Positions 1,066 to 18,064 of a stretch of DNA of 18,064 bases are shown in pieces. Below the pieces are notes generated by a model. It made no database searches. It was not told the DNA's origin and saw only the letters and a list, made by a program, of their open reading frames with translations. Position 1 is the stretch's first letter. The number at the start of each line of letters is the position of its first letter. This stretch comes from Treponemataceae bacterium (GTDB lineage: Bacteria > Spirochaetota > Spirochaetia > Treponematales > Rectinemataceae). Both the position numbers and the translations under genes were made by a program. The stretch is taken from NCBI GenBank assembly GCA_963677895.2, contig CAXXGJ010000001.1, forward strand, positions 1 to 18,064. The letters run 5' to 3'.

Positions 1066-1080
1066 GGGGAAGGGAATGCC

Positions 1081-1236
1081 ATGAACGATGCGGTGATGAT
1101 TCTGTACTACGCGATGACGGCTTTTTTCGCGGTCTGCCTCGCGTGGAATTTCGTCAAGACAAAGAACCTGCAGAAAGCGCTCCTTTACCTGGTCGTGCTG
1201 ATGCCCTTCGTCATGCGGCTCATCAGGCTCAAATGA
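1081..1236 (+). CDS. Small 51-aa two-TM membrane protein (not in ORF track)
   Basis: ATG 1081 to TGA 1234-1236 reads MNDAVMILYYAMTAFFAVCLAWNFVKTKNLQKALLYLVVLMPFVMRLIRLK. Purine-rich RBS (GAGGGGAAGGGA) upstream, two hydrophobic segments, GC3-rich codons, and it fills the gap between two operon genes. Confidence 0.8.
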   Translation: MNDAVMILYYAMTAFFAVCLAWNFVKTKNLQKALLYLVVLMPFVMRLIRLK

Positions 1237-1253
1237 CGGCGGGGAGGAATACC

Positions 1254-2426
1254 ATGAAAATTGAAGCAAAAAACGCGACGATACTGAAGGTTCTTGCGCT
1301 GGTCCTCTGGCTTGGGGTGATGGCTTTCGCGGGCAAGGCTTTCTACGACCATCGGAACTGGAAAGAGACCGTGGTCCTGGGCCCGGGCGTCACCTCGACG
1401 CGATCGCTGCACGAATGGTTCGCCCCGCTCGCGGGCTCGACGAACGACTGCAACGTCTACGTCCTCGACTCGGGTGTACCCGGCTCGACGATCCTCGTGC
1501 TCGGGGGAACCCACCCCGAGGAACCGGCCACCACCCTCGCCGCCGAACTCCTGGTGGAGAACACCAGACCCACAAGCGGCAGGCTCATGGTCGCCATCCA
1601 CACGAACCGCAGCGCTTCCACGGTCACGAGGCCGGGCGAAGCCTATCCGCAGTTCTATTCGATCAGACGGACTGGGGGCAGAAAAAATACCGCATGGCGA
1701 CCGTTCGGGCCAATCCCCTGGATTCCGGGCCCGACCCCGAAACCTATGTGCATTTCCCCAGCGGCCAGATGCTTGCCTATATGGATATCCGCAACATCAA
1801 CAGGACTTGGCCGGGCAGGCCCGACGGCCTCATCTGCGAGCGGACGGCCTTCGCCTTCATGGAGATGATACGGAAGGAGAAGGTGGATCTCGTCATCGAC
1901 CTCCACGAGGCCGAGCTGAATACCCCGTCATCGGCACCATCGTTGCGCACCAGAAGGCCCAGGAAATCGCGGCGATGGCTTCGATGGAGCTTTCCGCGAG
2001 CGAGTTCAGGATCGGGATGGAGGTGTCGCCGAGATCCCTCCACGGGCTCACGCACCGCGAGATTGGCGATTTTTCCGACGCGACCGCCCTCCTCTTTGAA
2101 TCCCCCGAACCTTTCCTCGACCGCGTCAGGGGGGCGACGAACGAAAAGCTCCTCCTCACCGGCCAGGACGACTTCGTCCCTCAAGGCCGGAAAGGCAGGG
2201 CTCCTCTACTGGCCGATCGACGAAAAGGGCTGGCCCATCGAGGTGCGAGTCGGCAGGCATGTTACGACCATCGAGAAAGTGCTCGAAGTTTGGGGCATGA
2301 TGTATCCCGAGAAACCGATCGCCATCGACGGGCTGCCTTCCTACGCGGAATTGACGGAGAAGGGCGTGGGCGCCTTCTTCGCCGATCCCTCGGCGCTGGG
2401 CGAAGGATAGAGTGGCGCTGGAATAA
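1254..2426 (+). CDS. M14 family (succinylglutamate desuccinylase/aspartoacylase-like) Zn hydrolase with N-terminal membrane anchor; frameshifted near 1665, 1917, 2179 and probably 2399
   Basis: GGAGGA RBS before ATG 1254. N-terminal TM segment ILKVLALVLWLGVMAFAG. Motifs GGTHPEE (HxxE Zn ligands), RNINRTWPG and VIDLHEAE. Stop is TAG 2408-2410 as read, or TAA 2424-2426 (...AKDRVALE*) if one extra G is removed. Confidence 0.8.
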
Positions 2427-2570
2427 CCCGCGGCAGACTGCCCGCCCGCCCAAAGACCGAAACTCCTCACCCCGAAACCGATAAACCGAAGGGTCGCAAC
2501 CCCCGAAGCGCCGAGACTCGGCGCCCAACCTCCGCCTATGCCGAAAAGAATCAGCGGTAAAAGCATTTTG

Positions 2571-2601
2571 TTGACAAGCGCGATAAGTCGTGCTTTACTT
2601 T
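2571..2601 (+). promoter_or_regulatory. Sigma70-type promoter of the ABC/sulfoquinovosidase operon
   Basis: Perfect TTGACA at 2571-2576. Candidate extended -10 TG-c-TTTACT (2591-2599, 17-bp spacer) in an AT-rich island about 65 bp upstream of the ATG at 2666. Confidence 0.65.
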
Positions 2602-2616
2602 CTTTTGATAAGTAAA
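2594..2616. promoter_or_regulatory. Palindromic operator (candidate ROK repressor site 1)
   Basis: TTTACTT-tcttttgat-AAGTAAA is a perfect 7-N9-7 inverted repeat overlapping the -10/+1 region. Its 21-bp core is 17/21 identical to 17214-17234. Confidence 0.7.
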
Positions 2617-2665
2617 TATTTCAAAGGCTGTGATTTTGCAGCCAGAAAGCTGGAAGGAGGAGAAG

Positions 2666-3950
2666 ATGAAGAAAGCGTATATCGCGCTTGTGCTCGCCCT
2701 TGCCCTTGTCGCGGGGCTCTCGGCGCAGACAATCAACGTTCTGTTCTGGGATGACGCCTATCCGAGAACGCTCATGGAAAGGATTCCGGAGTTCGAGAAG
2801 GCTACCGGGATCAAGGTCAATTTCGAAATCCTCCCAGCCGCCCCAAGTGTTCACCAAGACCTCGGTGAGCGTGACGAAGGAGAGGACCGACTACGATCTC
2901 GTTTGTATCGATGAAGGCAACATCCCCCTCTTCGCCTCCCTCATGCTGCCCTACGACCAGTGGGCACCCGGCAAGGTCTTCAAGAAGGGTCGATCCCAAC
3001 ACCGTGACCCCCGCCATGCTCGATGTCGCCCAGTGGGACGGCAAGCTCATCGGTCTGCCCATCAACGGCAACCTCTATGTATGGATGACCCGCAAAGACC
3101 TTGTGGAAAATCCTAAATACAAGGCCGACTTCAAGGCCCAGTATGGCTATGAGCTTACGGTTCCCCAGACCTTCCAGCAGATGCTCGACGCGGGTACCTT
3201 CTTCCAGAAGAACGGCATCGTCTCTGGCGGCTTCGGTCCCTTCAACGGCGGACCGGCCGGCGTCTTTGGCGAAGCGATCTTCATGTATGAATCCTACGGC
3301 ACCAAGTTCATCGAGTGGCAGGGCGGAAAACCCGTCCTCGTGGTGGACAAGGCCAAGGCTATTCAGGGAATGGAAGTCTACAAGAAGCTGATGGCGATCT
3401 CCCCCAAGGGCGCCGAGACCATGGCCCACGTCGAGCGCCAGGCCGCGTTCTGCGCCGATCCCAAGGGCGTCTTCACCCAGTTCATTTGGCCGGCCCAGAT
3501 CGCCAGCTATGAGGATCCCGACAAGTCCCTTGTGGCGGGCAAGATTCTCTATTCCGCTCCCCCGGCAGGTCCATTCGGCCGTTACGCCGTCCGCGGAACC
3601 TGGGCTGTCAACATTCCCATGGCGTCGAAGAACAGGACGCGGCGGCGGAATTCGTGTACTGGTGGGCTTCCAAGGACATAGCGTCCTGGCTCGTCGAGAA
3701 GAACACCGTCCCCGCGAGGACCGACGCCCTCACCGATCCCAAATTCGCCAAGTCGAAGCCATGGCTCGCCGCCATCGCAGAATCGATGAAGTATGCCGCC
3801 GCTCGCCCCAGGTTCAAGGAAGTTGCGCAGGTACAGGATATTGTGAAAAAATACTGGATCATGGGTATAACGGGACAGATGCCGACCGATCAGGCAACGC
3901 AGAAAATCATCGACGAGACGAATGATGTCCTCAAGAAAGCCGGATACTGA
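2666..3950 (+). CDS. Carbohydrate ABC transporter (CUT1) solute-binding protein, predicted SQ/SQ-glycerol binding; frameshifts near 2834, 2988, 3633
   Basis: AAGGAGG RBS; signal peptide MKKAYIALVLALALVAGLSA|Q. SBP_bac_1-like segments: IPEFEKATGIKVNFEIL, DYDLVCID, DGKLIGLPINGNLYVWMTRKDL, VPQTFQQMLDAG, AAAEFVYW. Stop TGA 3948-3950. Substrate inferred from context. Confidence 0.85.
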
Positions 3951-4865
3951 CGGCGTCTCTGTCTCCCTTATAAAAGGAAAGGCGCGGCACCGCGCGCCTT
4001 TCCTTTTTCTGTTGCCCGCGCTCCTCGTCGTGTTCGCGGTGCTCATCTTCCCGATCGTTTTTTCCTTCTTCGTCTCCGGTTTCAACTGGCCGCTCTCCGA
4101 GGGCGCGGGAGTAAGGAAATTCGTGGGCTTGGGCAACTACCTCGCCCTCTCGGTGGATCCCGAGTTCTGGAACAGCCTCAAGCTCCAGCTGGGATTCATC
4201 TTCATAGCGATCCCTATCGAGCTGCTTTTCGGCTTCGCCGCCGCCTCCTCCTCAACAGGGAATTTTTCGGCGCTCGACTGGTGCGGAGTCTTCTCCTCCT
4301 TCCCGTCTTCTTCCTGCCCATACTTTCGGGCATGACCTGGCGCTTCATGCTCCAGCCCCGGTACGGACCCCTCAATGCCCTTCTCCTGAAACTGGGGGCA
4401 CCGGAGATCACCTGGCTGGGGCGCCCGGTGACGGCCTACGCGGCCATCATCGTCCAGGATATCTGGCGCATGTGGCCATTCATGTTCATGCTCCTCTACG
4501 CCGGGCTCACCTCGATTCCCCAGGAAATCAACGAGGCGGCCGAGATCGACGGGGCGGGATTCTGGCTGAAACTCCGTTCGATAACGATACCGATGCTCAC
4601 CCCCACGATAATGACGGCTGTCCTTCTCAGGATCATCGATGCGCTGCGCGTGTTCAGCGAAGTCTACGTGATGACCGAGGGCGGTCCTGGTTCCTCGACG
4701 ACCCTCTTTTCGCTCTATACGCATAGACAGGCTTTCGGCTACCAGAAGGTGGGCATGGCGAGCGCCATGGCGATATTCCTCCTCGTGATCTCCATCGCCT
4801 TCGCCCTCACCCTTGTACGAAAGAACATGAGCCTCGATTCCCTCGAGGAAAAGGCTGGCGGTTGA
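3922..4865 (+). CDS. Carbohydrate ABC transporter permease (MalF/UgpA-like); start uncertain (3922 to about 3960); frameshift near 4244
   Basis: FLFLLPALLVV...FVGLGNY...DPEFWNSL; WRFMLQPRYGPLN; EAA loop IPQEINEAAEIDGAGFWLKLRSITIPML; VYVMTEGGPG. Stop TGA 4863-4865. Confidence 0.88.
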
Positions 4866-5699
4866 TGAAGCGCAACAAGCGAAAAATCCTCGTCAATTCA
4901 CTCATCGCCGTCGTCGCCTTCGCCGTGCTGGCCATCGAGCTCTATCCGATAGCGATCACCGTGATAAACGGATTCCGGCGCGACATCGTCATCCTCTCGG
5001 GCCAGCCATTCAAATTCTCCCAGCTCACGCTGCGAAGCTATCAGATGGTGCTCAAGAATACCGGTTTTCAGGTGGGGATGAAGAACAGCGTCATCATCGG
5101 CCTGCTTGTCCACGGGCATTTCGGTGTTCATAGGCGCGATGGCTTCCTATGGGATCGCCCGGTTCCGCTTTTCCTGGCGAAATGGGCTCGCCTACAGCTT
5201 CCTCGTCTTCAGGATGCTCCCGCAGATTTCCCTCGTCATCGCCCTCTACCTCATGTTTTCGTTCGTGGGCATCCGCGACACGATAGGGGGGATAACCCTC
5301 GCCCACACGAGTTTCAACGTGCCCTATGTGATATGGCTCCTCCTCCCCTTCTTCACGGCGGTCGACAAGGCCTACGAGGAGGCGGCGATGGTGGATGGCT
5401 GTACCCGGGGCGGCGTCTTCTTCAGGATTTTCCTGCCGATCGTGGCGCCAGGCCTTGTGGTGGCTGGCGTTTTCGCCTTCCTCAATTCGTGGAACGAATT
5501 CCTCTACGCCCTCATTCTCACCGGGGTGAATGCCAAGACGGCGCCCATAGCGATCAACGGCCTTCTGGGCGGCGAAACCCTCACCTGGGGCCAAGCCTGC
5601 GCGGCGGGCACCCTCATGCTTGTGCCGGTTTTCTTCTTCACCCTGGGCATGCAGAAATTCCTGATCCGCGGCATCACCGCCGGCGGCGTCAAAGGTTGA
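4865..5699 (+). CDS. Carbohydrate ABC transporter permease (MalG/UgpE-like); frameshift near 5107
   Basis: ATG overlaps the upstream stop (TGATG). Motifs MASYGIARFRF, EAA loop YEEAAMVDGCTRGGVFFRIFLP, FLNSWNEFLYALILT, C-terminal QKFLIRGITAGGVKG*. Confidence 0.9.
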
Positions 5700-5703
5700 T
5701 GAC

Positions 5704-7745
5704 ATGAATCTCGGCGCTCCCAGGCTCAAGCTCGATTCATCCGGGTTCTCGCTCGCCGATTCGGCGGGCAGGATTTTCCTCGCGCATTCGCCCGAATTCC
5801 CCCTCCTCTATATGGGTACGGGATCGGCGCGGATAAGCATGAATTGCGGAAACTTCGACATACGCGACGATATCAGGGAACTGTACGCGCTCCGCGACAT
5901 GAGGCCCGATACGGCTCATGGGGAAATCTTTGGCGCGGTTTTTACGGCTTGCGGGCAGGGCGTCGTGCGGATGGGGATTCGCCTGGCGGAGCGCGGAAGG
6001 GTGGCCGTGTCTTTCACCCAGGGAGAGGGTGGCGACCGCTTCAGGATCGCCCTGCCCGCGACCTCCGACGAGCATATCTACGGCTGCGGGGAACAGTTTT
6101 CGCATTTCGACCTGCGGGGGAAGGACTTTCCGCTCTGGACGAGCGAGCAGGGCGTGGGAAGGAACAAATCCACAAGGGTGACGATGGAAGCCGACCTCGC
6201 CGGCAAATCGGGCGGGGATTTACTGGTGGACATTCTTTCCCCAGCCTTCCTTCGTGTCGAGCGCGGGCTATTGGTGCCATATGGATTCCTCGGCTTACGC
6301 CGTCTTCGATTTCCGCCGCCCTGACAGGCACGAGCTCTATACCTGGTCGCTTCCATCGAGCCTGGTGTTCGGCGGGCGCGACTCCATGGCCGAGATCCTC
6401 GAGGATCAGTCCGAGTATTTCGGCAGACAGGCGACCCAGCCCGACTGGACCTATGACGGCCTGATCCTGGGCATCCAGGGCGGCACCGATGCCTGCGCCC
6501 GGAGGCTGGACATGGCGCGCAAGGCCGGCGTTCCCGTGGCGGGCATCTGGGCCCAGGACTGGGAAGGCATCAACATGACGAGCTTCGGGCAGAGGCTCCG
6601 CTGGGATTGGGTATGGAACCGCGAACGCTATCCGGGCCTGGATAAGGCCATCGCCGCCTGGAAGGACGAGGGAGTGCGCTTCCTCGCCTACGCCAACTGC
6701 TATGTGGGAAAGGGCTGGACGCTCTGCGAGGAAGCGGCGCGGCGAGGCTTCCTCGTCAAGAATTCCCTTGGGGAAGACTATTACGTCGATTTTGGGGAGT
6801 TCTACGCGGGTATTCCCGACCTGACCAATCCCGAGGCCTTCGACTGGTTTGCCGATGCCCTCCGAAAGAACATGATCGACCTCGGCATGGGCGGATGGAT
6901 GGCCGATTTCGGCGAATATCTCCCCACCGACGCGGTGTTGTGGGATGGAACGCCCGCCTTGTTGGCGCATAACCTGTGGCCGGCCTTGTGGGCCAAATGC
7001 AATCACGAGGCGGTGCGGAAGGCCGGCGCCCAGAACGAAGTACTCTACTTCATGCGGGCCGGCTTCACGGGAAGCCAGCGCTGGTGTCCCATGATGTGGG
7101 GAGGCGACCAGAACGTCGATTGGTCGCGGGACGACGGGTTGCCCTCGGCTGTCCGCGGCGCGCTCTCGCTCGCGATGAGCGGTCATGGCGTCCATCACAG
7201 CGATATCGGCGGCTATACGACGCTCTACGGCATGGCGCGAACCAGGGAACTCTTCATGCGCTGGGCGGAACAGGCCGCCTTCAGTCCCTTGATGCGGACC
7301 CACGAGGGAAACCGTCCCAAGGACAACTGGCAGTTCGATTCTGACGCGGTGACGCTCGCCCATCTGGCCCGCATGGGACGCGCGCATGTGGCGCTCAAGC
7401 CCTACCTCCGCTCCCTCGCGGCCGAGAACGCCGAGCGGGGCATCCCGATGATGAGGCCGATGTTCCTGGAATTCCCCGAAGACGAGGCTTTCTGGACCAT
7501 CGACGATCAGTACATGCTGGGTCCGGACCTCCTCGTGGCACCTGTCATGGTGGAGGGAGCCGTGTCGCGAAGCCTGCGGCTGCCCGCCGGGGAGTGGAAG
7601 GATTTCTGGACCGGGGATTCGGTGAAGGCGGGGGGCGCGGCCGGGAATCTAGTCGTGGATGCGCCGCTCGGAAAACCTCCGGTATTCGTCAGGGGCGGGC
7701 AGGACGGAAAATTCGACGGGATTGCCCCGAGCGATCTTACACTAA
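5704..7745 (+). CDS. yihQ: Sulfoquinovosidase (GH31, YihQ-like); frameshift near 6220; 3' end at 7745 if an extra C near 7726 is removed, otherwise 7822
   Basis: DEHIYGCGEQFSHFDLRGK...WTSEQGVGRNK; sulfonate-pocket segment GIWAQDWEGINMTSFGQRLRWDW (Q, R, W); nucleophile motif WMADFGEYLP; acid/base motif WGGDQNVDWS; HSDIGGYTTL (Y); RTHEGNRP. All closely match E. coli YihQ as recalled. Confidence 0.93.
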
Positions 7746-8498
7746 TACCTCAATATTTTCCCCCAGTATTCCCACAAAGGCGCCCTTTTCCACGAGAGGT
7801 TTCCGTTCGGGGTGGGCTATGAGCCATTTGTTCTTCATGAAGAGGAATCGGGCTTCGGGGACGAGTTCGGCTGAGGGAGGCGCTCCGAGCGAGACGGCAG
7901 CCCTGGGCGGGGCAGCGAGCTGGGCGTTGAGCGGGGCCTTTGGCGCGAACCCGGAGGGTAGCGCGTCGTTCGTGCCCCGAGGCAGGACGATGATGCTCTT
8001 GAATCCCTCGGGATGCGCCCTGCAGGGGGAAAAGTGAAGGACTTCGGGCAGGAGCTCGATGGCCGCGCCCCTGGGGACGAAAAAGCATGTCAAAAGCGAA
8101 GAATCGATATGGCCGGATTCGTCGATGTCGGCCCTGGATCCCAGCAGGAGCGCCAAGTCCGTGACGGCGATGTCGATTTCGGCTGACTTGTGCCACTCCA
8201 CGGCGTTCAGCCTGGAGTTGGGGCCGTTGCAGTAACCGATCTGGATGTCAGCAAGACCGAAATACAGTCCCAAACGTTCGATATACGGCGACGCTTCCAA
8301 GTCCGCGCAACTGGCGACATAGCGATTGGCCTGCGGATCGATGTCGGTGATCCTGTCGGCCAGTTCAGCCAGTTCGGAAAAATCTTCCAGAAGCACCCGT
8401 CCGAAACGGCCGAATCTTGAATCGGCGAGATCGCGTATCGCGAGCCTTGGATTGGCGAGGCGGAGCCGCTCGAGTGTTGCTTTCGAACTCAGCATCAT
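7737..8498 (-). CDS. DUF4867 family cupin-like protein (SftX/SqvB-like, recurrent in sulfoglycolysis clusters)
   Basis: Intact 253-aa ORF with AGGAG RBS. Motifs QIGYCNGPNSRLNAVEWHKSAEI, EVLHFSPC, IVLPRGTN, LFMKNKWLIAHPE, GAFVGILGENI. Confidence 0.82.
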   Translation of the reverse strand: MMLSSKATLERLRLANPRLAIRDLADSRFGRFGRVLLEDFSELAELADRITDIDPQANRYVASCADLEASPYIERLGLYFGLADIQIGYCNGPNSRLNAVEWHKSAEIDIAVTDLALLLGSRADIDESGHIDSSLLTCFFVPRGAAIELLPEVLHFSPCRAHPEGFKSIIVLPRGTNDALPSGFAPKAPLNAQLAAPPRAAVSLGAPPSAELVPEARFLFMKNKWLIAHPERKPLVEKGAFVGILGENIEVLV

Positions 8499-8546
8499 TT
8501 CTATTCTCCTGGTTGCTTGTTTGCCTGGTGGCTTGGTTTGAAAGCC

Positions 8547-10004
8547 TCAGCGTCCCGCCGCCGGGCCGAAGATCGGGCCCAGGAGGGAAAAGACCGAAGC
8601 TATGGCGAAGGCCGCGGCGAGGGCGAGGACGATGCCTGCTTTCGCCATGTCCTTTATACTGAAATATCCCGTGGTATAGGGGATGACATTGACCGGCGAG
8701 GTCGTGACGAGGATGACCGCGAGGTTTGAGGCGAAGGCCGCGGCGAGGGCGAGGAGGCGGGCGTCGATGGAGAGGCTTGTTCCCAGGGCGAGGACAAGGG
8801 GTACGATGATGGTTCCGGTGAGCGTGTTGGAGGAGAAGACGACTTTTATGATGAACACGCCCAGGACGACGGCGACGAGACGCCAGAACGCGGGCAAGCC
8901 GCCTATGCCGCCCAGCACCGCCGCCGACACCCATGATGCCGCGCCGCTTTTATAGAGGCTCATTCCCAGGCAGATGCCCGTCGCTATGAGAAGGATACCC
9001 GCCCAATCGATGTCCTTCTGGATGTCCTTCCACGCGAAACCCGCCGAGCCCGGCAGGAATAGGAGGACGACCGCCAGAAGTGCCCCCATCGAAATGGGGA
9101 TCTTGAATCCGAGGATTTTTCCGAGCGTGGGTGACAGTATCCAGAAGAGAATGGTCAAGGCGAAGACGATGCCCGTGGCGATTTCCTGCCGGGAGAATGG
9201 CTTTTGGGAGGAAAATTCGCCTCGGAGCTCTTCCTTCCCTCGGGTAAGGCGGGCATGTTCAGGGGGGAAGAAGAGAATAATGACGAGCCAGGCAAGGGGG
9301 AGGAGGATGAGGAGGGTCGGGATGCCGAAAGCCATCCAATCCAGGAACCCGATGTTGTAGCCGGCGACTTCGGAGAGGAACCGTACCGCTATGGGATTCG
9401 AGCCCGAGCCGGCGGGCGTGCCGAGCGCGCCGAGGAGAGCGCCCCAGGCCACCGCCATCATGAGGGCCTTGCCGAAGCGGCTTTCGCCGGGTTTCTCGCC
9501 TTCATCCTGGAGGATGCCGAGCGCCAGGGGCATGAGCATGGCCGAGGAGGCGAGCGCGGTGATCCACATGCTTAAGAAGGCTCCCGCGGCGAGGAAGCCG
9601 AATATGATGGCGCGCGTCGAGTCGCCGGTGAGGGAGAGGACGAGGAGGGAGAAGCGCTTGGCGAGACCGGATCGCCCCAGGCAAGCGGCCAGGACCAGGA
9701 CGCCGATGAAGAAAATGATGACGTCGTCGCCGAAGCCGGCGCGGATGATGTCGGTGTAGGAGCCGCCGCCGAGGAGGGCCAGAAGGAGTATGGCGGCGAG
9801 CCCGGTGATGTGGAAGGGAAGGGCCTCGGCGATCCAGAGAACGAGGGCGAAAGCCAGGACGGCCAGGGAAATCCGGCCCTGGGTTTCCAGGGTGGCGCCC
9901 CGGATGGTGCGCAGAGATTCAGGAATTGGCAGCAGGCAGACAAGGGCGAGGAGGGCGAAACCGCCGAGGATCGCCCAATTTTTGCCGCCTGACAGACGTT
10001 TCAT
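8547..10004 (-). CDS. DASS/SLC13 family anion transporter (candidate sulfoacetate exporter), 485 aa
   Basis: ATG 10004 (MKRLSGG...) overlaps the repaired upstream stop. Motifs LWIAEALPFHITGL, SGLAKRFSL, FLSMWIT, LGALGTPAGSGSNPIA, IDWAGILLIATG, VFSSNT, TSPVNVIPYTTGYFSIKDMAKAG. Confidence 0.88.
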   Translation of the reverse strand: MKRLSGGKNWAILGGFALLALVCLLPIPESLRTIRGATLETQGRISLAVLAFALVLWIAEALPFHITGLAAILLLALLGGGSYTDIIRAGFGDDVIIFFIGVLVLAACLGRSGLAKRFSLLVLSLTGDSTRAIIFGFLAAGAFLSMWITALASSAMLMPLALGILQDEGEKPGESRFGKALMMAVAWGALLGALGTPAGSGSNPIAVRFLSEVAGYNIGFLDWMAFGIPTLLILLPLAWLVIILFFPPEHARLTRGKEELRGEFSSQKPFSRQEIATGIVFALTILFWILSPTLGKILGFKIPISMGALLAVVLLFLPGSAGFAWKDIQKDIDWAGILLIATGICLGMSLYKSGAASWVSAAVLGGIGGLPAFWRLVAVVLGVFIIKVVFSSNTLTGTIIVPLVLALGTSLSIDARLLALAAAFASNLAVILVTTSPVNVIPYTTGYFSIKDMAKAGIVLALAAAFAIASVFSLLGPIFGPAAGR

Positions 10005-10961
10005 AGAGCGGTCATCCCCAAGGCTTGGCGCAGGCATTCGCCGACCAGGCTTGGCCTTTCGGCGGTGAAAACCCCGGCGGCTTTCAGGGCGGCTATCTTG
10101 TCCAGGGCCGAGCCCGCTGCCGCCCGAGACTATGGCGCCCGCGTGGCCCATGCGCTTGCCGGCCGGGGCATGCCTTCCGCCGATAAAAGCGACGACGGGT
10201 TTCGTAAAGCTGTCGGCTGCGAGCGCCTGGGCCACTTCCTCTTCCATGGTCCCGCCGAGTTCGCCGATGATGACCACCGCGTCGGTGCCGGAGTCGGCCT
10301 GGAAGTCCGGCAGGAGCTCGGCGAATCGGGTGCCCGGCACCGAGTCTCCGCCCACGCCGATGAGACTCGACACGCCGAAGCCTCCCGCCACGACCATGGC
10401 GGTGACTTCGTTGGTGAGGCTGCCGGACCGGGTCATGACGCCTATTCTCCCCGGTTTGTAGACCCGTTCGATCCAGTAGGGAAACATCCCCATCATGGCG
10501 AATCCCGGGCTTATGACGCCCGATGTATTGCCGCCAATCACCCTCGCCCCGCAGGATCGCGCCGCCGCGCGGATCTGGAGGGCCTCGTGGAGAGGTATGC
10601 CGTCGGCGATCGTGACAATCTTTTTAATGCCCGCGTCCAGGGCCTCAAAGACCGCGTCCTTGGTGAAGCGCGGCGGGACGAATAGCATCGCCGCGTCGGC
10701 CTCGTGGTGGACAAGAGCGCGCTTCAGGCTGTGGTAGACTGGCACTCCCGAGAAACCCGGCAGGCCAGGCCGCTCCGGCTGCCCCGGCCGGCTGGCCGGA
10801 ATCTTCGCGTCGGCGGCAGCGATGGCCCCTTCCTTGCCAGGGGTGACGCCCGCCACCACCCAGGTGCCGAGTTCGAGCATATGCTTGGTCCAAAACCCGC
10901 CTTCGTTGCCCGTGGCCCCGAAAACGACGACCCTTGTATCCCTATCGATGAAGATGCTCAT
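10001..10961 (-). CDS. sqwL: ADP-forming CoA ligase alpha subunit (SucD-like; predicted sulfoacetate-CoA ligase subunit); frameshift near 10113
   Basis: MSIFIDRDTRVVVFGATG, VAGVTPGK, LFVPP, TRSGSLTNE, IGVGGD, VIIGELGG and phospho-His motif RMGHAGA. Removing one G near 10113 gives ...GSALDKIAALKAAGV...QALGMTAL* with an ATGA overlap at 10001-10004. Symbol assigned by context and recall. Confidence 0.8.
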
Positions 10962-12092
10962 GCGCGGCCTCCGGTATTGCCGCGCGCCAGTGATACCGCC
11001 CTGGCCACGGCCGCCTCGGTGTCGGTCAGGGGATCCAGGCCGGCTGACTTCAAAGTGACGGCGGCCGCGTCCTCGCCGGTGCCGCGGATGCAGACGACGA
11101 TCGGGCATTTCGGCTTCAGCGCTTCCATAGCCTGGACTATGCCCTCGGCCATGACATCGGCTCGCGCAATGGTTCCGAACGTGACGATGAGAATGACCTT
11201 GGGATCATTCTTCACGCAGAGTTCCATCGCCTTGAGGCCCTTGCGGTAATTGGGACCGCCGAACTCGAGATAGTTGGCGACCCTGCCCCCCGCGTCGGCG
11301 ATGAGATCGTAGACGGTCGTCGTCAGGCCGGCCCCCGCGCACATGAGGCTGATGTCCCCGTCGAATTGCAGATAGGGGATGCCTTCCTTTGCCGCTTCGA
11401 AAGCGATCTCGGAGTCGAAATAGTCCCTGTCCGGTTCCCATTCGGGATGGCGGAACATGGAGTTGTCGTCTATGGAAAGCTTGCCGTCCCCGGCGACGAG
11501 TTCCCCCGATTTCGTCACGAAAAGCGGGTTGATTTCGGCGAGCTCGGCGTCAAGGCTCCTGAAGACCTTAAAGAGCGATTCGACCACCTGGGCGAATTTT
11601 TTGGCGAGCTCGCCTTCCAGCCCCAGGCTGTAGGCGCAATTGCGCGCGGTAAAGGGGAGGAGCCCCGTATCGAGATCGACATATTCCCGCACGATTTTTT
11701 CGGGAGCTGGTGCGCGCCAGCGTTTCGATCTCGACGCCGCCATCGGCGCAGGCGAGGATGAGAGCCCTCGCGGAGAGAGGATCCACGGTGATCGATAGAT
11801 AGATTTCCCGGGCGATATCGACCGCTTTTTCCACGAGGATTTTCCGTACGCCATGCGGCGACTCGAAGAGCTCCCGCGCGACTTTTCTTGTCTCTTGAGG
11901 GTTATGCACTACCTTGATGAGCCCGGCCTTTCCCCTGCCGCCGCGCAAAACCTGCGACTTGAGAACGCAGGGAAAGCCGATGGCTACGGCCGCCTGTTCA
12001 GCCCCGGAGGAATCCGTCGCGATGCTCCCCTGGGGAACGCTCAATCCCCGCGCGGCGAAGATTTCCTTGGCCTGGTATTCGAAAAGCTTCAT
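10958..12092 (-). CDS. sqwK: ADP-forming CoA ligase beta subunit (SucC-like ATP-grasp; predicted sulfoacetate-CoA ligase subunit); frameshift near 11710
   Basis: MKLFEYQAKEIF, KSQVLRGGRGKAGLI, GGVEIE, AEINPL, DGKLSIDDNSMFRH, MCAGAGL, VANYLEFGG, VTFGTIARAD, IRGTG. Symbol assigned by context and recall. Confidence 0.8.
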
Positions 12093-12115
12093 CTGCTTCC
12101 TCTTGCGAACGCCGT

Positions 12116-13537
12116 CTAGCGTCCGAATTTAGTCCAGAGATTCCCGAAGATTTCCTCGTCGGAGGGGCGCGCGGGCTCGATGGGCATCGCGAGCCAGGTG
12201 ACATTGATGAACTGGCGCCAGTGGATGTTTTCCGTCGTGATATTGCCGCCCCAGGTGCCGCAGCCGAGGGTTACCGTGGAGGGCATGCCGTTGAAAAAGG
12301 CGCCGCCGTTGCCCGCGACCATGGGCTGGCGGACCATGATGCGGCTCGATTTCATCGTTTCGCCCATGCGGTTGATATAGGTTTCGTTGAAGGTGAAAAT
12401 TCCGGAAGAGTGGCCTGTGCCGCACGCGTCGGTGATGCGGACGACGAAAGATCGGCCTTCCTCGAAGCTGTCGCAGGGCAGGAGGGTGAGCACGGGCGAC
12501 AGTTTTTCGTGGAAGAACTTGTCCTCCTCGATGGCGCGTTCGCCTTCCACCATCAGGAATCTGGTGGCTTCGGGTACCGTAAAGCCCGCGCCCTGGGCGA
12601 TCGCGGCCGCGCTGTGGGCGATCACGGCGGGATTGAGCCCCTCGGCGCCGCTCTTGCCCCGAATCCATACCCAGGACCGCAGTTTCGCCTTCTCCTCGCT
12701 CGAACAGAGATAGCCGCCCTTGGACTTCAGCGCGTCGACAAAGGCCTGGTACACCGCGGTGTGGACGACAGCCGTATTTTCGCTCGAACAGGAAGTGGCG
12801 TTGTCGAAGCACTTGGACATGGAAATCTTGGCGGCCGCGTCCAGAGGATCGGCGTCCTCGCAGAGGAGCTGCACCGCGTTGCCGGGGCCGACCCCGTAGG
12901 CCGGCGTTCCGGAAGAGTAGGCTGCCTTTACCATGGCGCCCCCGCCGGTGGCCACCACCAGATCCACCTGGCGCATGAGCTCCCCGGTGAGTTCCACGGA
13001 AGGATTTTCGATGCACTGCACGAGGTCGGCGGGGGCGCCGGCCTTTACCAAGGCGGCTCGCATAAACTCGCAGGCGAGCCTGGTCGCCCCCTTGGCCTTG
13101 GGGTGCGGGGCGAAAATCACCGCGTTGGCTCCCTTCAGGATCGAAAGCCCGTTCGAAGCCGGCGTGGCCGTGGGATTGGTTATGGGCGCGAGGGCCCCCA
13201 CGACGCCTACCGGTTTCGCGTATTTGCGGATTCCCTTCGCGGCGTCGATTTCCATCAGGCCAACCGAGCGCGCGCCGCGGATATCCTTCAGCACGCCCAT
13301 CACCTTGTTCTTATGCTTGGTGACCTTGTCCTCGTAGACGCCCATACCCGTCTCGTCCACGGCGGCGCGCGCGAGGACGCGGATGTTCTCGTCCTTGTAC
13401 ACCGACCAGCCCACGTAGAAGACTACTTCGTCCAGGCGTTCCTGGCTCCAGGTTCCCGCGATCGCCTGCGCCGCTCTCGCCCTGGCCACCAGGCCCTCTA
13501 TGATCGCCCGGTTTTCGGCGGATTCATCCACGCTCAT
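12116..13537 (-). CDS. sqwD: CoA-acylating aldehyde dehydrogenase (predicted sulfoacetaldehyde dehydrogenase, SqwD/SauS-like), 473 aa
   Basis: Intact ORF. Motifs KPVGVVGALAPITNPTAT, IFAPHP, VATGGGAMVKAAYSSGTPAYGVGPGN, catalytic Cys in SKCFDNATSCSSEN, EKLSPVL, GHSSGI, TLGCGTWGGN. No fused alcohol dehydrogenase domain. Confidence 0.85.
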   Translation of the reverse strand: MSVDESAENRAIIEGLVARARAAQAIAGTWSQERLDEVVFYVGWSVYKDENIRVLARAAVDETGMGVYEDKVTKHKNKVMGVLKDIRGARSVGLMEIDAAKGIRKYAKPVGVVGALAPITNPTATPASNGLSILKGANAVIFAPHPKAKGATRLACEFMRAALVKAGAPADLVQCIENPSVELTGELMRQVDLVVATGGGAMVKAAYSSGTPAYGVGPGNAVQLLCEDADPLDAAAKISMSKCFDNATSCSSENTAVVHTAVYQAFVDALKSKGGYLCSSEEKAKLRSWVWIRGKSGAEGLNPAVIAHSAAAIAQGAGFTVPEATRFLMVEGERAIEEDKFFHEKLSPVLTLLPCDSFEEGRSFVVRITDACGTGHSSGIFTFNETYINRMGETMKSSRIMVRQPMVAGNGGAFFNGMPSTVTLGCGTWGGNITTENIHWRQFINVTWLAMPIEPARPSDEEIFGNLWTKFGR

Positions 13538-14006
13538 TTGAACTGCTCCGCCTCAAGCTCGATCACCTTGTTGAAGGCATTGGTGAGAAAATCCTTCTTG
13601 AACTCCATCTTCTGGGTGAAGGCCACGGCCAGCCAGGCATCGACGATCTCCTTCCCGAGGAAAGGAGCGGTGATCCAGCCGCCCATGGTGATGACATTGG
13701 CGTTGTTGACGATCTTCGCCCGCTCTCCGGAGAACAGATCGTCCACCACGCAGGCGTAGATTCCCTTGTGCTTGTTCGCGACGATAGCCATGCCCTGACC
13801 GGTTCCGCAGATCAGGATGCCCCTGTCGGCCTCACCCTTCTGGATAGCCCTGCAGACGAGAGGAGCCTGGGCGAAATAGGGGCTGGGCTTGTCGGCGCTG
13901 GGAATCCCCAGATCGAGCACTTCCACCCCTGCCTTGGTCCTCAAGTGGGCCACGATTTCCTCTTTGAGCGGAAACCCGAAAGATCCGACGCTATGGCGAT
14001 TTTCAT
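13534..14006 (-). CDS. sqwI: RpiB/LacAB family isomerase (predicted 4-deoxy-4-sulfoerythrose isomerase); frameshift near 13970
   Basis: Repaired sequence MKIAIASDLSGFPLKEEIVAHL...GEADRGILICGTGQGMAIVANKHKGIYA...NNANVITMGG. ATGA overlaps at both ends. Confidence 0.8.
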
Positions 14007-14964
14007 ACCTGCTTCCTTTTTCCTTTTCCCGCGACAAGCGATCTCGCCGCCGCCGCGATATCTTCGCCGAGAGACCGAATCTCTTCTTGAGCCAATCTTG
14101 CGTCCCCACCTCGCCGAACTCGTCGGCCACGCCAACCCTGGCGAGCCTGCAGCCTTGCAGGTCCGATTCGGCGATGAGCTCGGCCACCGCCGACCCCAGG
14201 CCGCCCATCTTCTGGTGGTTCTCCGCCGTCACGACGGCGCCCGTTTTCCCGATCCACTCGCCGATGAGCCCCGCGTCGAGCGGTTTCACCGATATGGCAT
14301 CGATGACCGCGGCTTCGATCCCCTCAGCCTCGAGAATCTTCGCCGCGGCGAGGGCTTCCGGAACCATGATCGCGCCGAGAGCGACGATGACCAGATCCTT
14401 GCCACCGCGCAGAAGCTTGCCTTTTCCCAGCTCGAAGGCCTCGCCTTCGGGATAGAGAGCCTCGATGGCCTTCCTGTGCAGCCGCAGATAGCCGACCTTG
14501 CCCGAGGCGGCCAGCTTCCGGACCAGGGCCTTGAGCGAAACGGGGTCCGAGGGCTCGACGATATCGATGCCGGGAACCATCCGCATTATGCCGAGGTCCT
14601 CAAAGGGCATATGCGTACCCCCGTTGAAGGCCGCCGATATGCCGGGGTCGGTGCCCACCAGCTTTACCGGCAGGCGCGCGTAGGCGCCGGACATGAAAAA
14701 CTGGTCGAAGGCGCGGCGCGAGGCAAAACAGCCAAAGGTCGCCGCGAAGGGGATCTTGCCTTCGGCGGCTAGACCGGCCGCCACGCCGAGCATGTTGGCT
14801 TCGGCGACGCCCACGTCGAAGGCGCGCTCGGGAAAAGCGGTCTTGAAGGGAGTAGTGCCCGTCGCCTTCATCAGATCGGCTTCCACCACGACGATGCGAG
14901 GATCTTCCTTCGCCAATTCCAAAAGGGTTTCGGTGTACGCCGCCCTCATTTCTTTCGCTGCCAT
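14003..14964 (-). CDS. sqwH: Transketolase C-terminal subunit (predicted sulfofructose transketolase subunit); frameshift near 14065
   Basis: GAGGAG RBS. Motifs MRAAYTETLLELAKEDPRIVVVEADL, FDVGVAEANM, FNGGTHMPFEDL, YLRLHR, VTAENHQKMGGLGSAVAE, FGEVG. Repaired end ...DIAAAARSLVAGKGKRKQV* at 14003. Confidence 0.85.
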
Positions 14965-14975
14965 CGCGGGCTCCT

Positions 14976-15846
14976 CTACCGGTCGAGCGCCGCGATGGCT
15001 TTCTTCGCGGTCTCGTAATCGAAATTCATGTTGTGGCTTCCTACCTGACCCTCGCAGAACTCGGCGCCCTTGCCTTTAATCGTGTCGAGAATGATCATGG
15101 TGGGCAGGGCGGCAGGACCTGCGGCGGCCTCCGTGGCCGAACCGGGCGCCCCTGGCCGCGCCCTCGACCGCGCGTTCTCGATGGCCGAGGCGATCGCCTC
15201 CAGGTCATGGCCGTCGATCCGCTCCACTTCCCAACCGAAGGCTGACCATTTGGCTTCAAGCGACTCGAGATTCATGATTTCGGAAGTCACCCCGTCGATC
15301 TGCATCTTGTTGCAGTCGGTGAAGGCGATGAGCCGGTCGAGCCTGTTGTGCGCGGCGAACATCGCCGCCTCCCAGACCTGGCCCTCGTTGGATTCGCCGT
15401 CGCCGATGATGGCGTAGGTGAAGACATCGCGCCCATCCATCCTGTTGGCGAGGGCGATTCCGCAGGCAGCGGAGATCCCCTGCCCCAGGGAACCCGTCGT
15501 CATGTCGATGCCGGGGGTCTTGTTCCGGTCGCAATGACTCGGAAGATTCGTGCCGCCCTTGTTGAGCGTATGGAGCCATTCCTCGGGGAAAAATCCCTTC
15601 ATCGCGAGAGCGCTGTACAGCGCTGGCCCCGCGTGCCCCTTCGAGAGCACCAGCCGATCGCGCCCGGGCCACCGCGGCCGCGCCGGATCGACCTTCATTT
15701 TCCCTGAAGTAGAGAACGGCAAGCAGATCGGCGATCGACAATGCGCCGCCAATATGCCCCACCCCGAGAAAACCAATCATATCGATCGTTTTCTTCCTGA
15801 TTTCCTTGGCCGCCTCTTCGAGTCGGCTCAGTTCCATGGAATCCAT
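14976..15846 (-). CDS. sqwG: Transketolase N-terminal (ThDP-binding) subunit (predicted sulfofructose transketolase subunit); frameshift near 15700
   Basis: GGAGG RBS before ATG 15846. Motifs GHIGGALSIADLLAVLYF, DRLVLSKGHAGPALY, LPSHCD, TTGSLGQG, ThDP motif GDGESNEGQVWEA...DCNKMQIDG, TIKGKG. Confidence 0.87.
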
Positions 15847-15882
15847 AACGCGGATACCCTCCATGCGCGCCAAAGGCGGCTA

Positions 15883-17199
15883 TTATTCGATGATTTCCCA
15901 GCCCAGAATCGAAGCGGCGATCTTGAGCGGCTCGATGAAATCGCCATAGACCACCGAAGCGTGATGGGCGACGCCCTTGTAGACGATGAGATCGAGCACT
16001 TCCCTCAGCGGCCTGTCGAAAACTGCCTTGAGATAGGTTCCCTTGAGCTCTTTCTGCATGGGCACTGCGCGCGCCCTCTGAAGGAAGACGCGCCGCTTGC
16101 CCCTCGCTGTATCGATGCGCGCGATGGAGAGCTCGCCTGATTTGAGGACAAAGTCGGCCGTCACACCCTTTCCTCCGGCGAAATAGGTATCCAAAGAGCG
16201 CACGGAGCAGCCGTCCCAGAGATTGCAGGGAGCCACGCCGCAGTGCCAGAAAAGCGCGAAGTTCTGCGCCAGGTCCACCCTGGGAAAAATCGAAGAGGTA
16301 GGGCGTCTCCGCGCCTATAGCCTGGTGGACAAGCATCGAGAGCGCGCCCCTCGAGGTCGCCCTCGCAGGCGAGAATCCTGCCCTCGGACTGGAGAAGCGA
16401 CATGGCCGCGCAGGGAGAGATGCCAAAGTCCCGGGCGAACTCGGGCCAGCAGCGCACGGCCAGGCCGAGAGCCTGTTGTTGGCCATGAAGGCGTCGAATC
16501 TGGCGGAGAGTTCCGCCACCTTGGCCACCTGGACGGACGTGACGCCTGAAACCTCGAATACCGAGCGAAGCTGCGCTTCCCGTTTCGCTATCGCCTCGGC
16601 GTTGGCGGGACTTGTGAACACATCGGAGAGCTCATAATGATCGACCAGGACACCCGTCGCCGCGTAGAGCGAGGGGATCGTCACTGAAAGATTGAAGAAT
16701 CCGTGCGCCCTGTAGCCGAGAAGCCCCACATGGGCAGTGCGCAGAGCCACGATGACGCGGATCGCGTCCACCCAGGTTTCGTCGATTTTGGGGCCGAGGT
16801 TCACCCTGTACTGGTCGACGCCCGCTTTGTAGAGATTGGACGCGTGAGATTGACGCCGCAGACCGAGTTGAGTCGGATCTTCCCCCCGTTGTAAGGGAGC
16901 TCGTCCAAACCCCAGAGGAGGAGCGGCACCTTGCAGCTTTTGTACATCTCGAGCGCGAGGTGACCAAGGTGAAAGGTCCCCGAAATGCAGACCAAGGCGT
17001 CGATACGCGCCCCCGCGAACTTTTCGCCCGCGCCTCGGGCGTCTTCGGGGCTGATAACGAGGCCGGGAACGATCTCCCAGTCCACCGCCTCGAGTTTTTG
17101 CACGTCGGCCTGAATCTCGGCGTAGAGACCTTCGGCCGCCTTGAAATCGAATGTTTCGCGTGCCAGGCATACAAGACCCAATCGTATCCTCTGCTTCAT
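15883..17199 (-). CDS. sqvD: L-fucose/L-arabinose isomerase family protein (predicted sulfoquinovose isomerase, SqvD/SftI-like); frameshifts near 16845, 16465, 16350, 16280
   Basis: GGAG RBS. Repaired sequence MKQRIRLGLVCLARETFD...SGTFHLG...RLNSVCGVNL(N)ASNL...VGLLGYRAHGF...AVRCWPEF...ACEGDLEGALSM...FWHCGVAP...GVAHHASVVYGD; CEGD, WHCG and HH are the metal-site motifs of the family. Substrate inferred from context. Confidence 0.8.
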
Positions 17200-17213
17200 G
17201 GCATTGCTCCGTA

Positions 17214-17234
17214 TTATTTTCTTATTGTAAGTAA
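17214..17234. promoter_or_regulatory. Palindromic operator (candidate ROK repressor site 2)
   Basis: TTATTT-tcttattgt-AAGTAA on +, equal to TTACTT-N9-AAATAA on -, 15 bp upstream of the isomerase ATG. Confidence 0.68.
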
Positions 17235-17258
17235 GTATCAAAAACGCGAATTCGTCAA
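17229..17258 (-). promoter_or_regulatory. Sigma70-type promoter of the catabolic operon
   Basis: Minus strand reads TTGACG (17258-17253) aattcgcgtttttGATACTTACTT in an AT-rich island. The exact -10 hexamer is ambiguous. Confidence 0.55.
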
Positions 17259-17346
17259 CTGCTTTTTTAGAGGGCCGTATGAAAATGAGCGAAATTTCGC
17301 CGAAGCGGGAATTTTGGGGGAGCGGGGTCAGTTCCGGATCAATCCC

Positions 17347-18064
17347 TCAGCTCAGGAAGGAGTCGAGGACGAGATCGGCCGCTCCGCGGAGGGCAAAATG
17401 AAGGTTATATGCCCTGCCGAACACCTTGGGCTTGATCATATCGAAACTGGAAGCTTCGCGGCCTAGCTTTTCCATCGTGCGGCGGGCCAGCTCCGCGGCG
17501 ATCGGCTCCGAATTGGCGATGAGAAGGAAGGAAGCGGGGCGGAAAAGACGGCTCGCCGTCTGGAGAGCGCCCGAAATGTATCCAGCGGCGGCCGAGAGCG
17601 TGGCGTCGGAGGAAGGGTCCTTCGGATCCAGGCCTTCGAAGAGCCAGTTGCCCCGGCGCAGGTTCTCGCTGTCCATCGAGGTGATGAAGGCTTCCAGGCA
17701 CCCCTGGCGCCGCAGACGCAGAGAGGTCCTTCGTAATCGATGCAGATATGACCCATCTCTATCGTCGTTCCCCGAGGGCTCATGAATACCCGGCCCTCAT
17801 CCACAAAGGCGCCATTCACCCCCGAGCGGAGGAGGAGCATGAACATCGACTCCTCGGTTTTCAAAGAACCATAACGATATTCGCTCTGGGCGATGACGGA
17901 GCAATTATTGTGGAGGAAAATGCGCAGACCCAGCTTTTTTTCGAGGATTCCAGCGATTGGATAGTTCTTCATGCCCGGAATCCGCGGGTACGAGACGATG
18001 AGCCTTTCGCCTATGTCCACCTGACCCGGAGCCCCAATACCCACGCCGACAATCAATTCCCTCG
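17347..18064 (-). CDS. ROK family protein, probably a transcriptional repressor (N-terminus outside window); frameshift near 17702
   Basis: GVGIGAPGQVD; FLHNNCSVIAQSE (ND-like motif degenerate); LRSGVNGA; Zn motif EMGHICIDYEGPLCVCGARG(C)LE; C-terminal ALRGAADLVLDSFLS*. The HTH is not visible in the window. Confidence 0.82.

Follow-up and report, generated by a model that had tools for sequence, protein, structure and literature searches.

What would the genes on contig CAXXGJ010000001.1 of the Treponemataceae bacterium assembly GCA_963677895.2 ferment, and do they, most of them being frameshifted, form a working pathway of that organism? The window (the whole stretch of DNA analysed) is this entire contig, C1, with a length of 18,064 bases and a GC content of 0.61, and belongs to a metagenome-assembled genome (MAG; G000, 39 contigs, 3.51 Mb) with a completeness of 92.8% and a contamination of 5.46% (about 5.5%). 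The nearest named records are the MAGs Spirochaetaceae bacterium UBA6076, uncultured Treponemataceae bacterium and Rectinemataceae bacterium. An earlier reading of the letters alone (the sequence-only reading) had proposed a sulfoglycolytic transketolase (sulfo-TK) locus fermenting sulfoquinovose (SQ) to sulfoacetate with a gain of ATP. The present analysis supports this interpretation through gene content and order, active-site residues of the GH31 enzyme, a best match of the aldehyde dehydrogenase to the SauS model, a SucCD-like ligase and the lack of SqwF and SqwE families in the window. The locus most probably represents the sulfoacetate-forming variant of sulfo-TK, its frameshifts being consensus errors and its contig a strain variant that carries the locus in a variable region (probability roughly 85%).

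The sulfo-TK pathway and its oxidative variant have been described (PMC9594981, PMC12890257, PMC11659671; here and below, articles are cited for the accessible portions of their text). In the variant, SqwD and SqwKL lead to sulfoacetate and ATP (PMC12890257, PMC11659671). Applied to the window, SQ or its glycerol glycoside would be taken up by an ABC importer (binding protein and two permeases, the ATPase being encoded elsewhere), and SQ would be freed by the YihQ-type GH31 enzyme and isomerized to sulfofructose by an SqvD-like enzyme. A split transketolase would then transfer a C2 ketol unit to glyceraldehyde 3-phosphate, yielding xylulose 5-phosphate and sulfoerythrose; an RpiB-like enzyme would convert sulfoerythrose to sulfoerythrulose, from which a second round of the transketolase would release sulfoacetaldehyde. 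The acylating aldehyde dehydrogenase would produce sulfoacetyl-CoA and NADH, the SucCD-like ligase would form sulfoacetate and ATP, the DASS carrier would move sulfoacetate out of the cell, and the ROK protein would act as regulator. Enzyme substrates and products, carrier direction and regulation are predictions throughout; the pathway is assigned from the families of the proteins, their conserved residues and the conserved gene neighbourhood.

Splitting of the six reading frames between stop codons gave 139 pieces with a minimum length of 70 residues, and a Pfam scan at E<=1e-5 yielded matches on 13 of them. On the plus strand these were BPD_transp_1 (twice) and the N, TIM-barrel and C domains of GH31; on the minus strand they were DUF4867, Na_sulph_symp/CitMHS, CoA_binding/Ligase_CoA, ATP-grasp_2/Ligase_CoA, Aldedh, LacAB_rpiB, Transket_pyr/Transketolase_C, Transketolase_N, Fucose_iso_C and ROK. 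An NCBIfam scan of the pieces was consistent with this inventory. The locus spans positions 2559-18064 and comprises 14 genes (Table 1). Every gene listed by the sequence-only reading was recovered close to its predicted position (by Pfam, NCBIfam and, for the binding protein, its orthologue in locus L004), and the proposed start at 2571 lies near position 2559, where homology to the loci of relatives begins. Two qualifications apply to the proposal of a locus complete from uptake to export: no ABC ATPase was matched within the locus by Pfam among the 139 pieces, and the ROK gene is incomplete. Intact proteins for comparison were provided by locus L001 of UBA6076 (DIXQ01000032.1 = G021:C13), which is 88-90% identical in DNA to window positions 3430-18056 and has the same genes in the same order with intact frames.

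Table 1. Features of the window, with the pathway locus first and the junction and native flank last.
Feature	Coordinates	Strand	Basis or remark
Solute-binding protein, CUT1-type ABC importer, at least 2 frameshifts	2665..3947	+	tblastn; L004 orthologue SBP_bac_1
ABC permease 1 (MalF/UgpA-like), 1 frameshift near 4245	3922..4865	+	PF00528; tblastn pieces in frames 1 and 3
ABC permease 2 (MalG-like), 1 frameshift near 5107	4865..5699	+	PF00528; NF008231 MalG 95.8 bits, under cut-off
GH31 sulfoquinovosidase (YihQ/SftG type, predicted), 1 frameshift near 6221	5704..7756	+	NF007746; PDB 5AED
DUF4867 cupin (SqvB/SftX type), intact	7740..8498	-	PF16161 199.3 bits; PDB 9GYY
DASS/SLC13-family anion carrier, intact	8553..10037	-	PF00939 172.9 bits; TIGR00785
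SucD-like alpha subunit, ADP-forming CoA ligase (SqwKL/SauCD type), 1 frameshift near 10116	10010..10961	-	CoA_binding, Ligase_CoA
SucC-like beta (ATP-grasp) subunit, same ligase, 1 frameshift near 11708	10961..12092	-	ATP-grasp_2, Ligase_CoA in two pieces
CoA-acylating aldehyde dehydrogenase (SqwD/SauS type), intact, 473 residues	12116..13537	-	NF047625 SauS best model
RpiB/LacAB-family isomerase (SqwI type), 1 frameshift near 13974	13534..14009	-	PF02502 123 bits
Transketolase C-terminal half (SqwH type), 1 frameshift near 14065	14006..14964	-	Transket_pyr (PF02779), Transketolase_C (PF02780)
Transketolase N-terminal, thiamine diphosphate-binding half (SqwG type), 1 frameshift near 15698	14976..15846	-	PF00456 152.8 bits
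Fucose-isomerase-family protein (SqvD/SftI type), 6 one-base indels	15883..17199	-	Fucose_iso_C; NF048012 SftI
ROK-family protein, C-terminal part, 1 frameshift near 17700	17347..18064	-	PF00480 73.3 bits
Junction of flank and island	2435..2558	.	C6 homology ends at 2434; homology of relatives starts at 2559
Membrane-protein gene, 3' part, native flank	1..1063	+	Corresponds to 444-residue frame L036:2818-4149; outside pathway
AstE/AspA-like gene, native flank, frameshifted	1235..2422	+	Intact C6 copy L036:1459-2646; outside pathway

Regarding the GH31 protein, its two pieces scored 751.8 and 122.1 bits against NF007746, the YihQ equivalog model, the larger one passing the cut-off of 553; the intact L001 orthologue scored 901 bits. 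The best six solved structures (5AED, 5AEE, 8R56, 5OHY, 5OHS and 6PNR, with 539-679 bits) represent E. coli YihQ, the A. tumefaciens SQase, E. rectale SftG and one further GH31 protein, and YicI followed with 156 bits; the E value against YihQ (5AED) was 7e-203. Residues identical to YihQ Q262, Q288, R301, W304, D405, D472 and Y508 were found in the PDB alignment (E. coli numbering, for which 5AEE, the chain of the D472N mutant in that output, served as a check). The sulfonate pocket Arg301-Trp304-Tyr508 and the Q/E-RWY motif are known from PMC8006165 and PMC12780224. The proposed sulfonate-pocket residues are thus confirmed, R301, W304, Y508 and Q288 being kept together with the catalytic D405 and D472, and the identification of the protein as a YihQ/SftG-type sulfoquinovosidase is supported by these comparisons. 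Under the names given by NCBIfam (alpha-glucosidase, transketolase, RpiB, succinate-CoA ligase) the window would be a generic alpha-glucoside uptake locus beside pentose-phosphate and succinyl-CoA enzymes, a reading that is hardly credible in view of the retained R301/W304/Y508 and Q288, top structures that are all sulfoquinovosidases, a full-length transketolase (C22) and other RpiB copies that G000 possesses in its own right, and SucCD-like proteins scoring under the SucCD cut-offs.

The gene of the putative SqvD-like isomerase carries 6 one-base indels. Its Fucose_iso_C match reached 27.2 bits on a window piece, under the cut-off of 29.3; three pieces matched NF048012 (SftI), its only NCBIfam match, and no solved relative was found in the PDB at E<=0.001. 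The two transketolase halves are encoded by adjoining genes, and a GDG...N stretch can be read in the translation of the N-terminal half. As the sequence-only reading had expected, the enzyme stands apart from the housekeeping transketolase: it is split and only 33% identical to the full-length copy on C22. The RpiB-like protein is 96.6% identical to its L001 orthologue, which passes TIGR00689 (113.1 versus 88.3 bits) and falls under the cut-off of the RpiB subfamily model (127.5 versus 135); further RpiB copies are present in G000 outside the locus. Two more split-transketolase clusters occur in this genome (C24:2490-7377 and C27:7576-10018), one including a fucose-isomerase-like gene, whose product shares 24% identity with the SqvD-like protein, and the other an RpiB gene.

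For the oxidative branch, the aldehyde dehydrogenase scored highest with SauS (NF047625, 502.5 bits), followed by AdhE (407.9 bits) and the EutE-type model (315 bits), and many of its close relatives carry the Joint Genome Institute (JGI) product name sulfoacetaldehyde dehydrogenase. Its nearest solved structure, 8CEI, is an acylating succinate-semialdehyde dehydrogenase, a kinship that agrees with the description of sulfoacetaldehyde dehydrogenase homologues by the authors of the pathway (PMC10413351). The SucD-like window protein scored 280 bits against NF004230. Its translation holds a MGHAGA stretch, which is taken here to be the phosphohistidine motif. Comparison with housekeeping SucCD bore out the predicted distinction, since the intact L001 proteins miss all four curated cut-offs: the SucC-like one reached 318 versus 375.55 bits (TIGR01016) and 315.3 versus 370 (NF001913), and the SucD-like one 307.5 versus 336 (NF004230) and 306.8 versus 353.2 (TIGR01019). 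No second SucC or SucD match was found in G000, the SucCD-like pair being the only one. Of the reductive branch, neither the iron-dependent alcohol dehydrogenase family (PF00465, SqwF) nor the TauE/SafE family (PF01925, SqwE) was matched among the 139 pieces of the window.

Related loci were fetched with the aldehyde dehydrogenase, 24 in total (15 from spirochaete MAGs, 9 proteobacterial). The spirochaete loci repeat the order transketolase N-terminal half, C-terminal half, RpiB, aldehyde dehydrogenase, SucC, SucD, DASS; the RpiB position is kept in 13 of the 15, the DASS gene follows SucD in 11, the other four ending before that position, and GH31 and SqvD-like genes were found in 8 and 4 of the 15, respectively (E<=1e-10). 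In the proteobacterial loci, where long enough, the aldehyde dehydrogenase and SucC genes (with or without SucD) occur without a transketolase. This context bears on the possibility that the dehydrogenase, ligase and DASS genes serve another role, either import and activation of a dicarboxylate or sulfoacetate by the reverse, SauCD/SauS-type route, or the use of succinate semialdehyde as substrate. Such a role would fit the nearest solved dehydrogenase, which acts on succinate semialdehyde, the reverse use of homologous enzymes in Bilophila (PMC10413351), the transketolase-free clusters of L016, L017, L018, L019 and L022, and the annotation of DASS proteins as sodium-coupled symporters. It is nevertheless rather unlikely: in the spirochaete loci the block runs contiguously and in order with the transketolase and RpiB genes, genes for a sulfoquinovosidase and an SQ-isomerase-like protein lie in the window locus as well, the dehydrogenase scores highest with SauS, and neither an iron-dependent alcohol dehydrogenase nor a thiamine diphosphate enzyme besides the transketolase halves was found among the 139 pieces.

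Several observations on the related loci stand beside these results. The transketolase-free loci just listed come from alphaproteobacterial MAGs (Magnetovibrio, Rhodospirillaceae), show 33-45% identity and probably serve the utilisation of sulfoacetate by enzymes of the SauS/SauCD kind. In two spirochaete loci that are more distant (L007:6889-7662 and L015:6603-7370), a KduI/IolB-family cupin of 256-258 residues (53-58 bits) is encoded just upstream of the N-terminal transketolase half, in the position of the SqvD-like gene, which was not found there; this cupin might be a non-orthologous sulfoquinovose isomerase. In L008, an MFS_2 (GPH-family) sugar transporter gene (15181-16629) follows the DASS gene, and none of three ABC-importer queries matched anywhere in that locus. 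Within G000, an aldehyde dehydrogenase paralogue with 52% identity (C12:14000-32000, L030) lies beside a sugar ABC transporter, a thiamine diphosphate enzyme and RpiB-like and transketolase-like genes, with Gfo/Idh/MocA oxidoreductase, IclR and SDR genes as further neighbours, which looks like an unrelated sugar pathway.

Regarding transport, the binding protein starts with MKKAY (start codon read from the sequence) and is 97% identical to a partial L001 protein, split over two frames in tblastn. It gave no Pfam match on the window pieces, the intact L004 orthologue being recognized as SBP_bac_1 with 77.4 bits. Its nearest solved proteins are maltose/trehalose binders (E 1e-12), and it is regarded as a candidate SQ or SQ-glycerol binder. 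The DASS carrier passes the cut-off of TIGR00785 (241.1 versus 198.6 bits), is 94% identical to the L001 protein in a single frame (tblastn) and is, from its position and family, a candidate sulfoacetate exporter.

Is the locus still functional in its host? When compared with the L001 proteins, 11 of the 14 locus genes are split by one-base indels, the three intact exceptions being those of the aldehyde dehydrogenase, the DASS carrier and DUF4867; apparent fusions of SucD with DASS and of the C-terminal transketolase half with RpiB are frameshift artefacts, these being separate genes in L001. Such damage, with 16 frameshifting indels inside genes, is what a decaying pseudogene array would show, in which the frameshifts are real and the pathway is dead in this strain. 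Alignment with L001 revealed 30 indels, of which one-base events predominate (19, plus one of two bases), and 16 of these 20 short indels lie within genes and recur against L002, L003 or L004, the window being the odd one out. Once the private insertions are dropped, no gene has a premature stop (the only stop counted after frame correction is at codon 315 of 316 in permease 1), and the ratio of nonsynonymous to synonymous substitution (dN/dS) is 0.02-0.36 in all 14 genes. The flank is affected alike, with 23 gaps in 2445 aligned bases between C1 and contig C6 of G000, at sites where C6 and two same-genus genomes concur; C6 and the same-genus genome G001 differ by 2 gaps in 4555 bases, and rpoC on C25 is open across 1452 residues. 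Among the matches listed, contigs of four public sequencing runs lack the extra bases of the window at 16278 and 16347, and public-run contigs show at least 10 further one-base differences from it in the flank. Decay of the locus is thus very improbable, and the frameshifts are attributed, from these sequence comparisons, to errors in the consensus of a contig of low quality, as the indels are private to the window, dN/dS does not exceed 0.36, the flank is equally gapped and the public contigs lack the extra bases.

The position of the locus in the chromosome was approached through this flank. Window positions 1-2434 share 97% identity with G000:C6:160379-157947 and 92-93% with two same-genus genomes. 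C6 shares a block of Tex, response regulator, Macro-domain and tRNA-Gly genes with UBA6076, in which the island follows directly after tRNA-Gly(CCC). In C6, the tRNA gene is followed by about 10.5 kb with TetR, DUF4386, TctA, PrpF, aconitase and LysR genes and then by the sequence common to C1, and in G001 a different 9-kb cargo occupies the region between the same two boundaries, homology resuming at C6:157946, one base from the C1 breakpoint. The breakpoint sits in a 20-base intergenic gap. A public contig of 8464 bases covers window positions 1-8374 at even depth, and in a second public run a contig tracks the flank and departs exactly at 2434. C1 therefore appears to represent a minor variant strain of the G000 species, with the sulfo-TK locus occupying the variable region, a reading drawn from the identity of the flank to C6, the coincidence of the breakpoint with the cargo boundary of C6 and G001, and the bridging public contig.

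The contig might instead be chimeric or mis-binned, the locus coming from a spirochaete of a different genus in the same sample. Island DNA shares 88-91% identity with G021 and G005, which belong to other genera, while core genes of G000 and G021 share 68-77% with a synonymous divergence (dS) of at least 1.46; same-genus G001 and G002 do not have the locus, C1 is poorer in quality than the large contigs, and the bin has a contamination of 5.46% and contig GC contents of 0.33-0.68. An artefact of this kind would, however, hardly be expected to join a native flank (97% identical to C6) exactly at the edge of a stretch in which C6 and G001 themselves differ, in a short intergenic gap and with no repeat common to both sides of the join, and to be matched by public contigs that run evenly across the join or leave the flank at the same base; this alternative is accordingly considered unlikely. 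Across G000 (C1-C39), the lowest and highest GC contents belong to C39 (0.33) and C35 (0.68), and on account of this range the bin is probably mixed.

Within the junction lie an element of 84 bases (2444-2527) and a GC-rich hairpin (about 2509-2525), and a promoter-like region of the importer operon begins there; just past the junction, the hexamers TTGACA (2572-2577) and TTTACT (2595-2600) can be read directly. The element has a counterpart with 81% identity in UBA6076 (L001:4107-4024), which lies between tRNA-Gly and ROK at the other island end and is oriented alike with respect to the island. A further copy was found neither in G000 nor at the far island end in G021, so that a reading of the element as an att site is unsupported. 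On C6, the 3' end of tRNA-Gly(CCC) is repeated exactly over 40 bases (147388-147466; 150561-150600), 3.1 kb downstream of the tRNA gene. Integrated elements usually leave such a repeat of a tRNA 3' end behind as a scar. The island of UBA6076 differs from the window by an AAA_14/DUF4143 ATPase gene (L001:15853-17043) between the two convergent operons, and past its binding-protein gene it is followed by genes for a PALP enzyme, an SNF2/SWIM helicase and HsdR, a type I restriction R subunit (L035:1568-9587).

Relative to UBA6076, dS of the island genes is 0.24-0.76. Three core genes beside the hot spot show 68-77% DNA identity, with dS values of 1.46 and 1.91 and, for the response regulator, a value too saturated to calculate (proportion of synonymous differences, pS, 0.86). 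Island divergence lying far under that of the core genes suggests that the island has been transferred horizontally between genera. A broader view, in which sulfo-TK in spirochaetes is an exchanged cargo of the tRNA-Gly region, strains differ in their use of SQ and the DASS carrier is the exporter or exchanger of sulfoacetate, is tentative and judged somewhat short of an even chance; if true, sulfoacetate would be a new substrate for the DASS family.

Several points weigh against the interpretation as a sulfoacetate-forming sulfo-TK locus residing in this genome. The SauS score of the aldehyde dehydrogenase is under the cut-off of 600, and the intact L001 orthologue of the SqvD-like protein aligns full length to SftI with 185.6 bits versus a cut-off of 700. 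No sulfoquinovosyl-glycerol-binding protein is among the 15 PDB matches of the binding protein at E<=0.001. Symport or exchange is the mode usually ascribed to DASS carriers, which makes sulfoacetate export by this one an assumption. G001 and G002 have no close copy of the aldehyde dehydrogenase, their best matches being paralogues with 52-53% identity. The run of the bridging 8464-base contig may be the source sample, so that its support may not be independent, and the tRNA-Gly end of the island is absent from C1, that side being deduced from UBA6076.

The remaining genes of the locus are those of the DUF4867 cupin and the ROK protein. The former matches B. megaterium SqvB (9GYY) with an E value of 1e-54, and the SqvB metal ligands E97, H99, E103 and H150 (positions 117, 119, 123 and 170 of the 9GYY chain, which carries a 20-residue tag offset) all face identical residues. 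These ligands, and the presence of a DUF4867 gene beside some sulfo-TK clusters, are described in PMC11968277, whose accessible portions assign no role to the family so far. The ROK gene runs to the end of the contig and matches residues 154-391 of the 391-residue L001 protein. This orthologue aligns from residue 2 or 13, N-terminal part included, to NagC/Mlc regulators, for which reason the ROK protein is probably a regulator. Inspection by eye of the two promoter regions led to no claim of a common ROK operator. In the native flank, the intact C6 copy of the AstE/AspA-like gene product (396 residues) matches PF24827 with 28.6 bits and the window piece with 21 bits, under the cut-off; the 444-residue frame has no Pfam family. 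Rfam gave no match at the gathering threshold and ARAGORN no tRNA in the window.

Which sulfite-respiring partners can complete the breakdown depends on the C2 sulfonate released by a degrader, and an uncultured spirochaete lineage is likely added here to the sulfoacetate producers. The DASS carrier conserved in the spirochaete loci is a candidate for the export step, and the data suggest that SQ degradation is a strain-variable trait exchanged between genera. Public runs labelled groundwater metagenome contain contigs with a similarity of at least 92%.

Among known systems, a reductive sulfo-TK cluster was reportedly described in Clostridium sp. MSTE9 by Liu et al. in 2021 (ACS Catal.). According to the accessible portions of the literature, this cluster (SqvD, SqwGH, SqwI, SqwF, SqwE, YihQ) would share its upper pathway with the window, but an NADH-dependent reductase leads to isethionate, whereas the window encodes a predicted acylating dehydrogenase and a ligase that would bring a gain of ATP. 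The oxidative variant is said to have been demonstrated with recombinant Acholeplasma enzymes by Chu et al. in 2023 (Appl Environ Microbiol 89:e0061723). Matched by description, that variant (SqvD, SqwGH, SqwI, SqwD, SqwKL) uses the same enzyme families as the window, and neither has SqwF. Its exporter is named SqwE (PMC11659671), whereas a DASS gene follows the ligase genes in the window and in 11 of the 15 spirochaete loci, and no TauE-family gene was found among the 139 pieces of the window. Bilophila wadsworthia possesses SauS-SauCD (PMC10413351), and the SauS model is the best match of the window dehydrogenase, yet with 502.5 bits versus a cut-off of 600; B. wadsworthia operates these enzymes in the reverse direction for sulfonate respiration, with an importer of the tripartite tricarboxylate transporter (TTT) type, an isethionate sulfolyase and no transketolase (PMC10413351). 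The suggestion that the layout and host might be undescribed holds only in part: the occurrence of the variant in Spirochaetes is already stated, along with Firmicutes and Tenericutes, in a 2026 review (PMC12890257). The chemistry of the pathway is already known and the locus is a further example of it, with an uncultured spirochaete as host in place of Acholeplasma.

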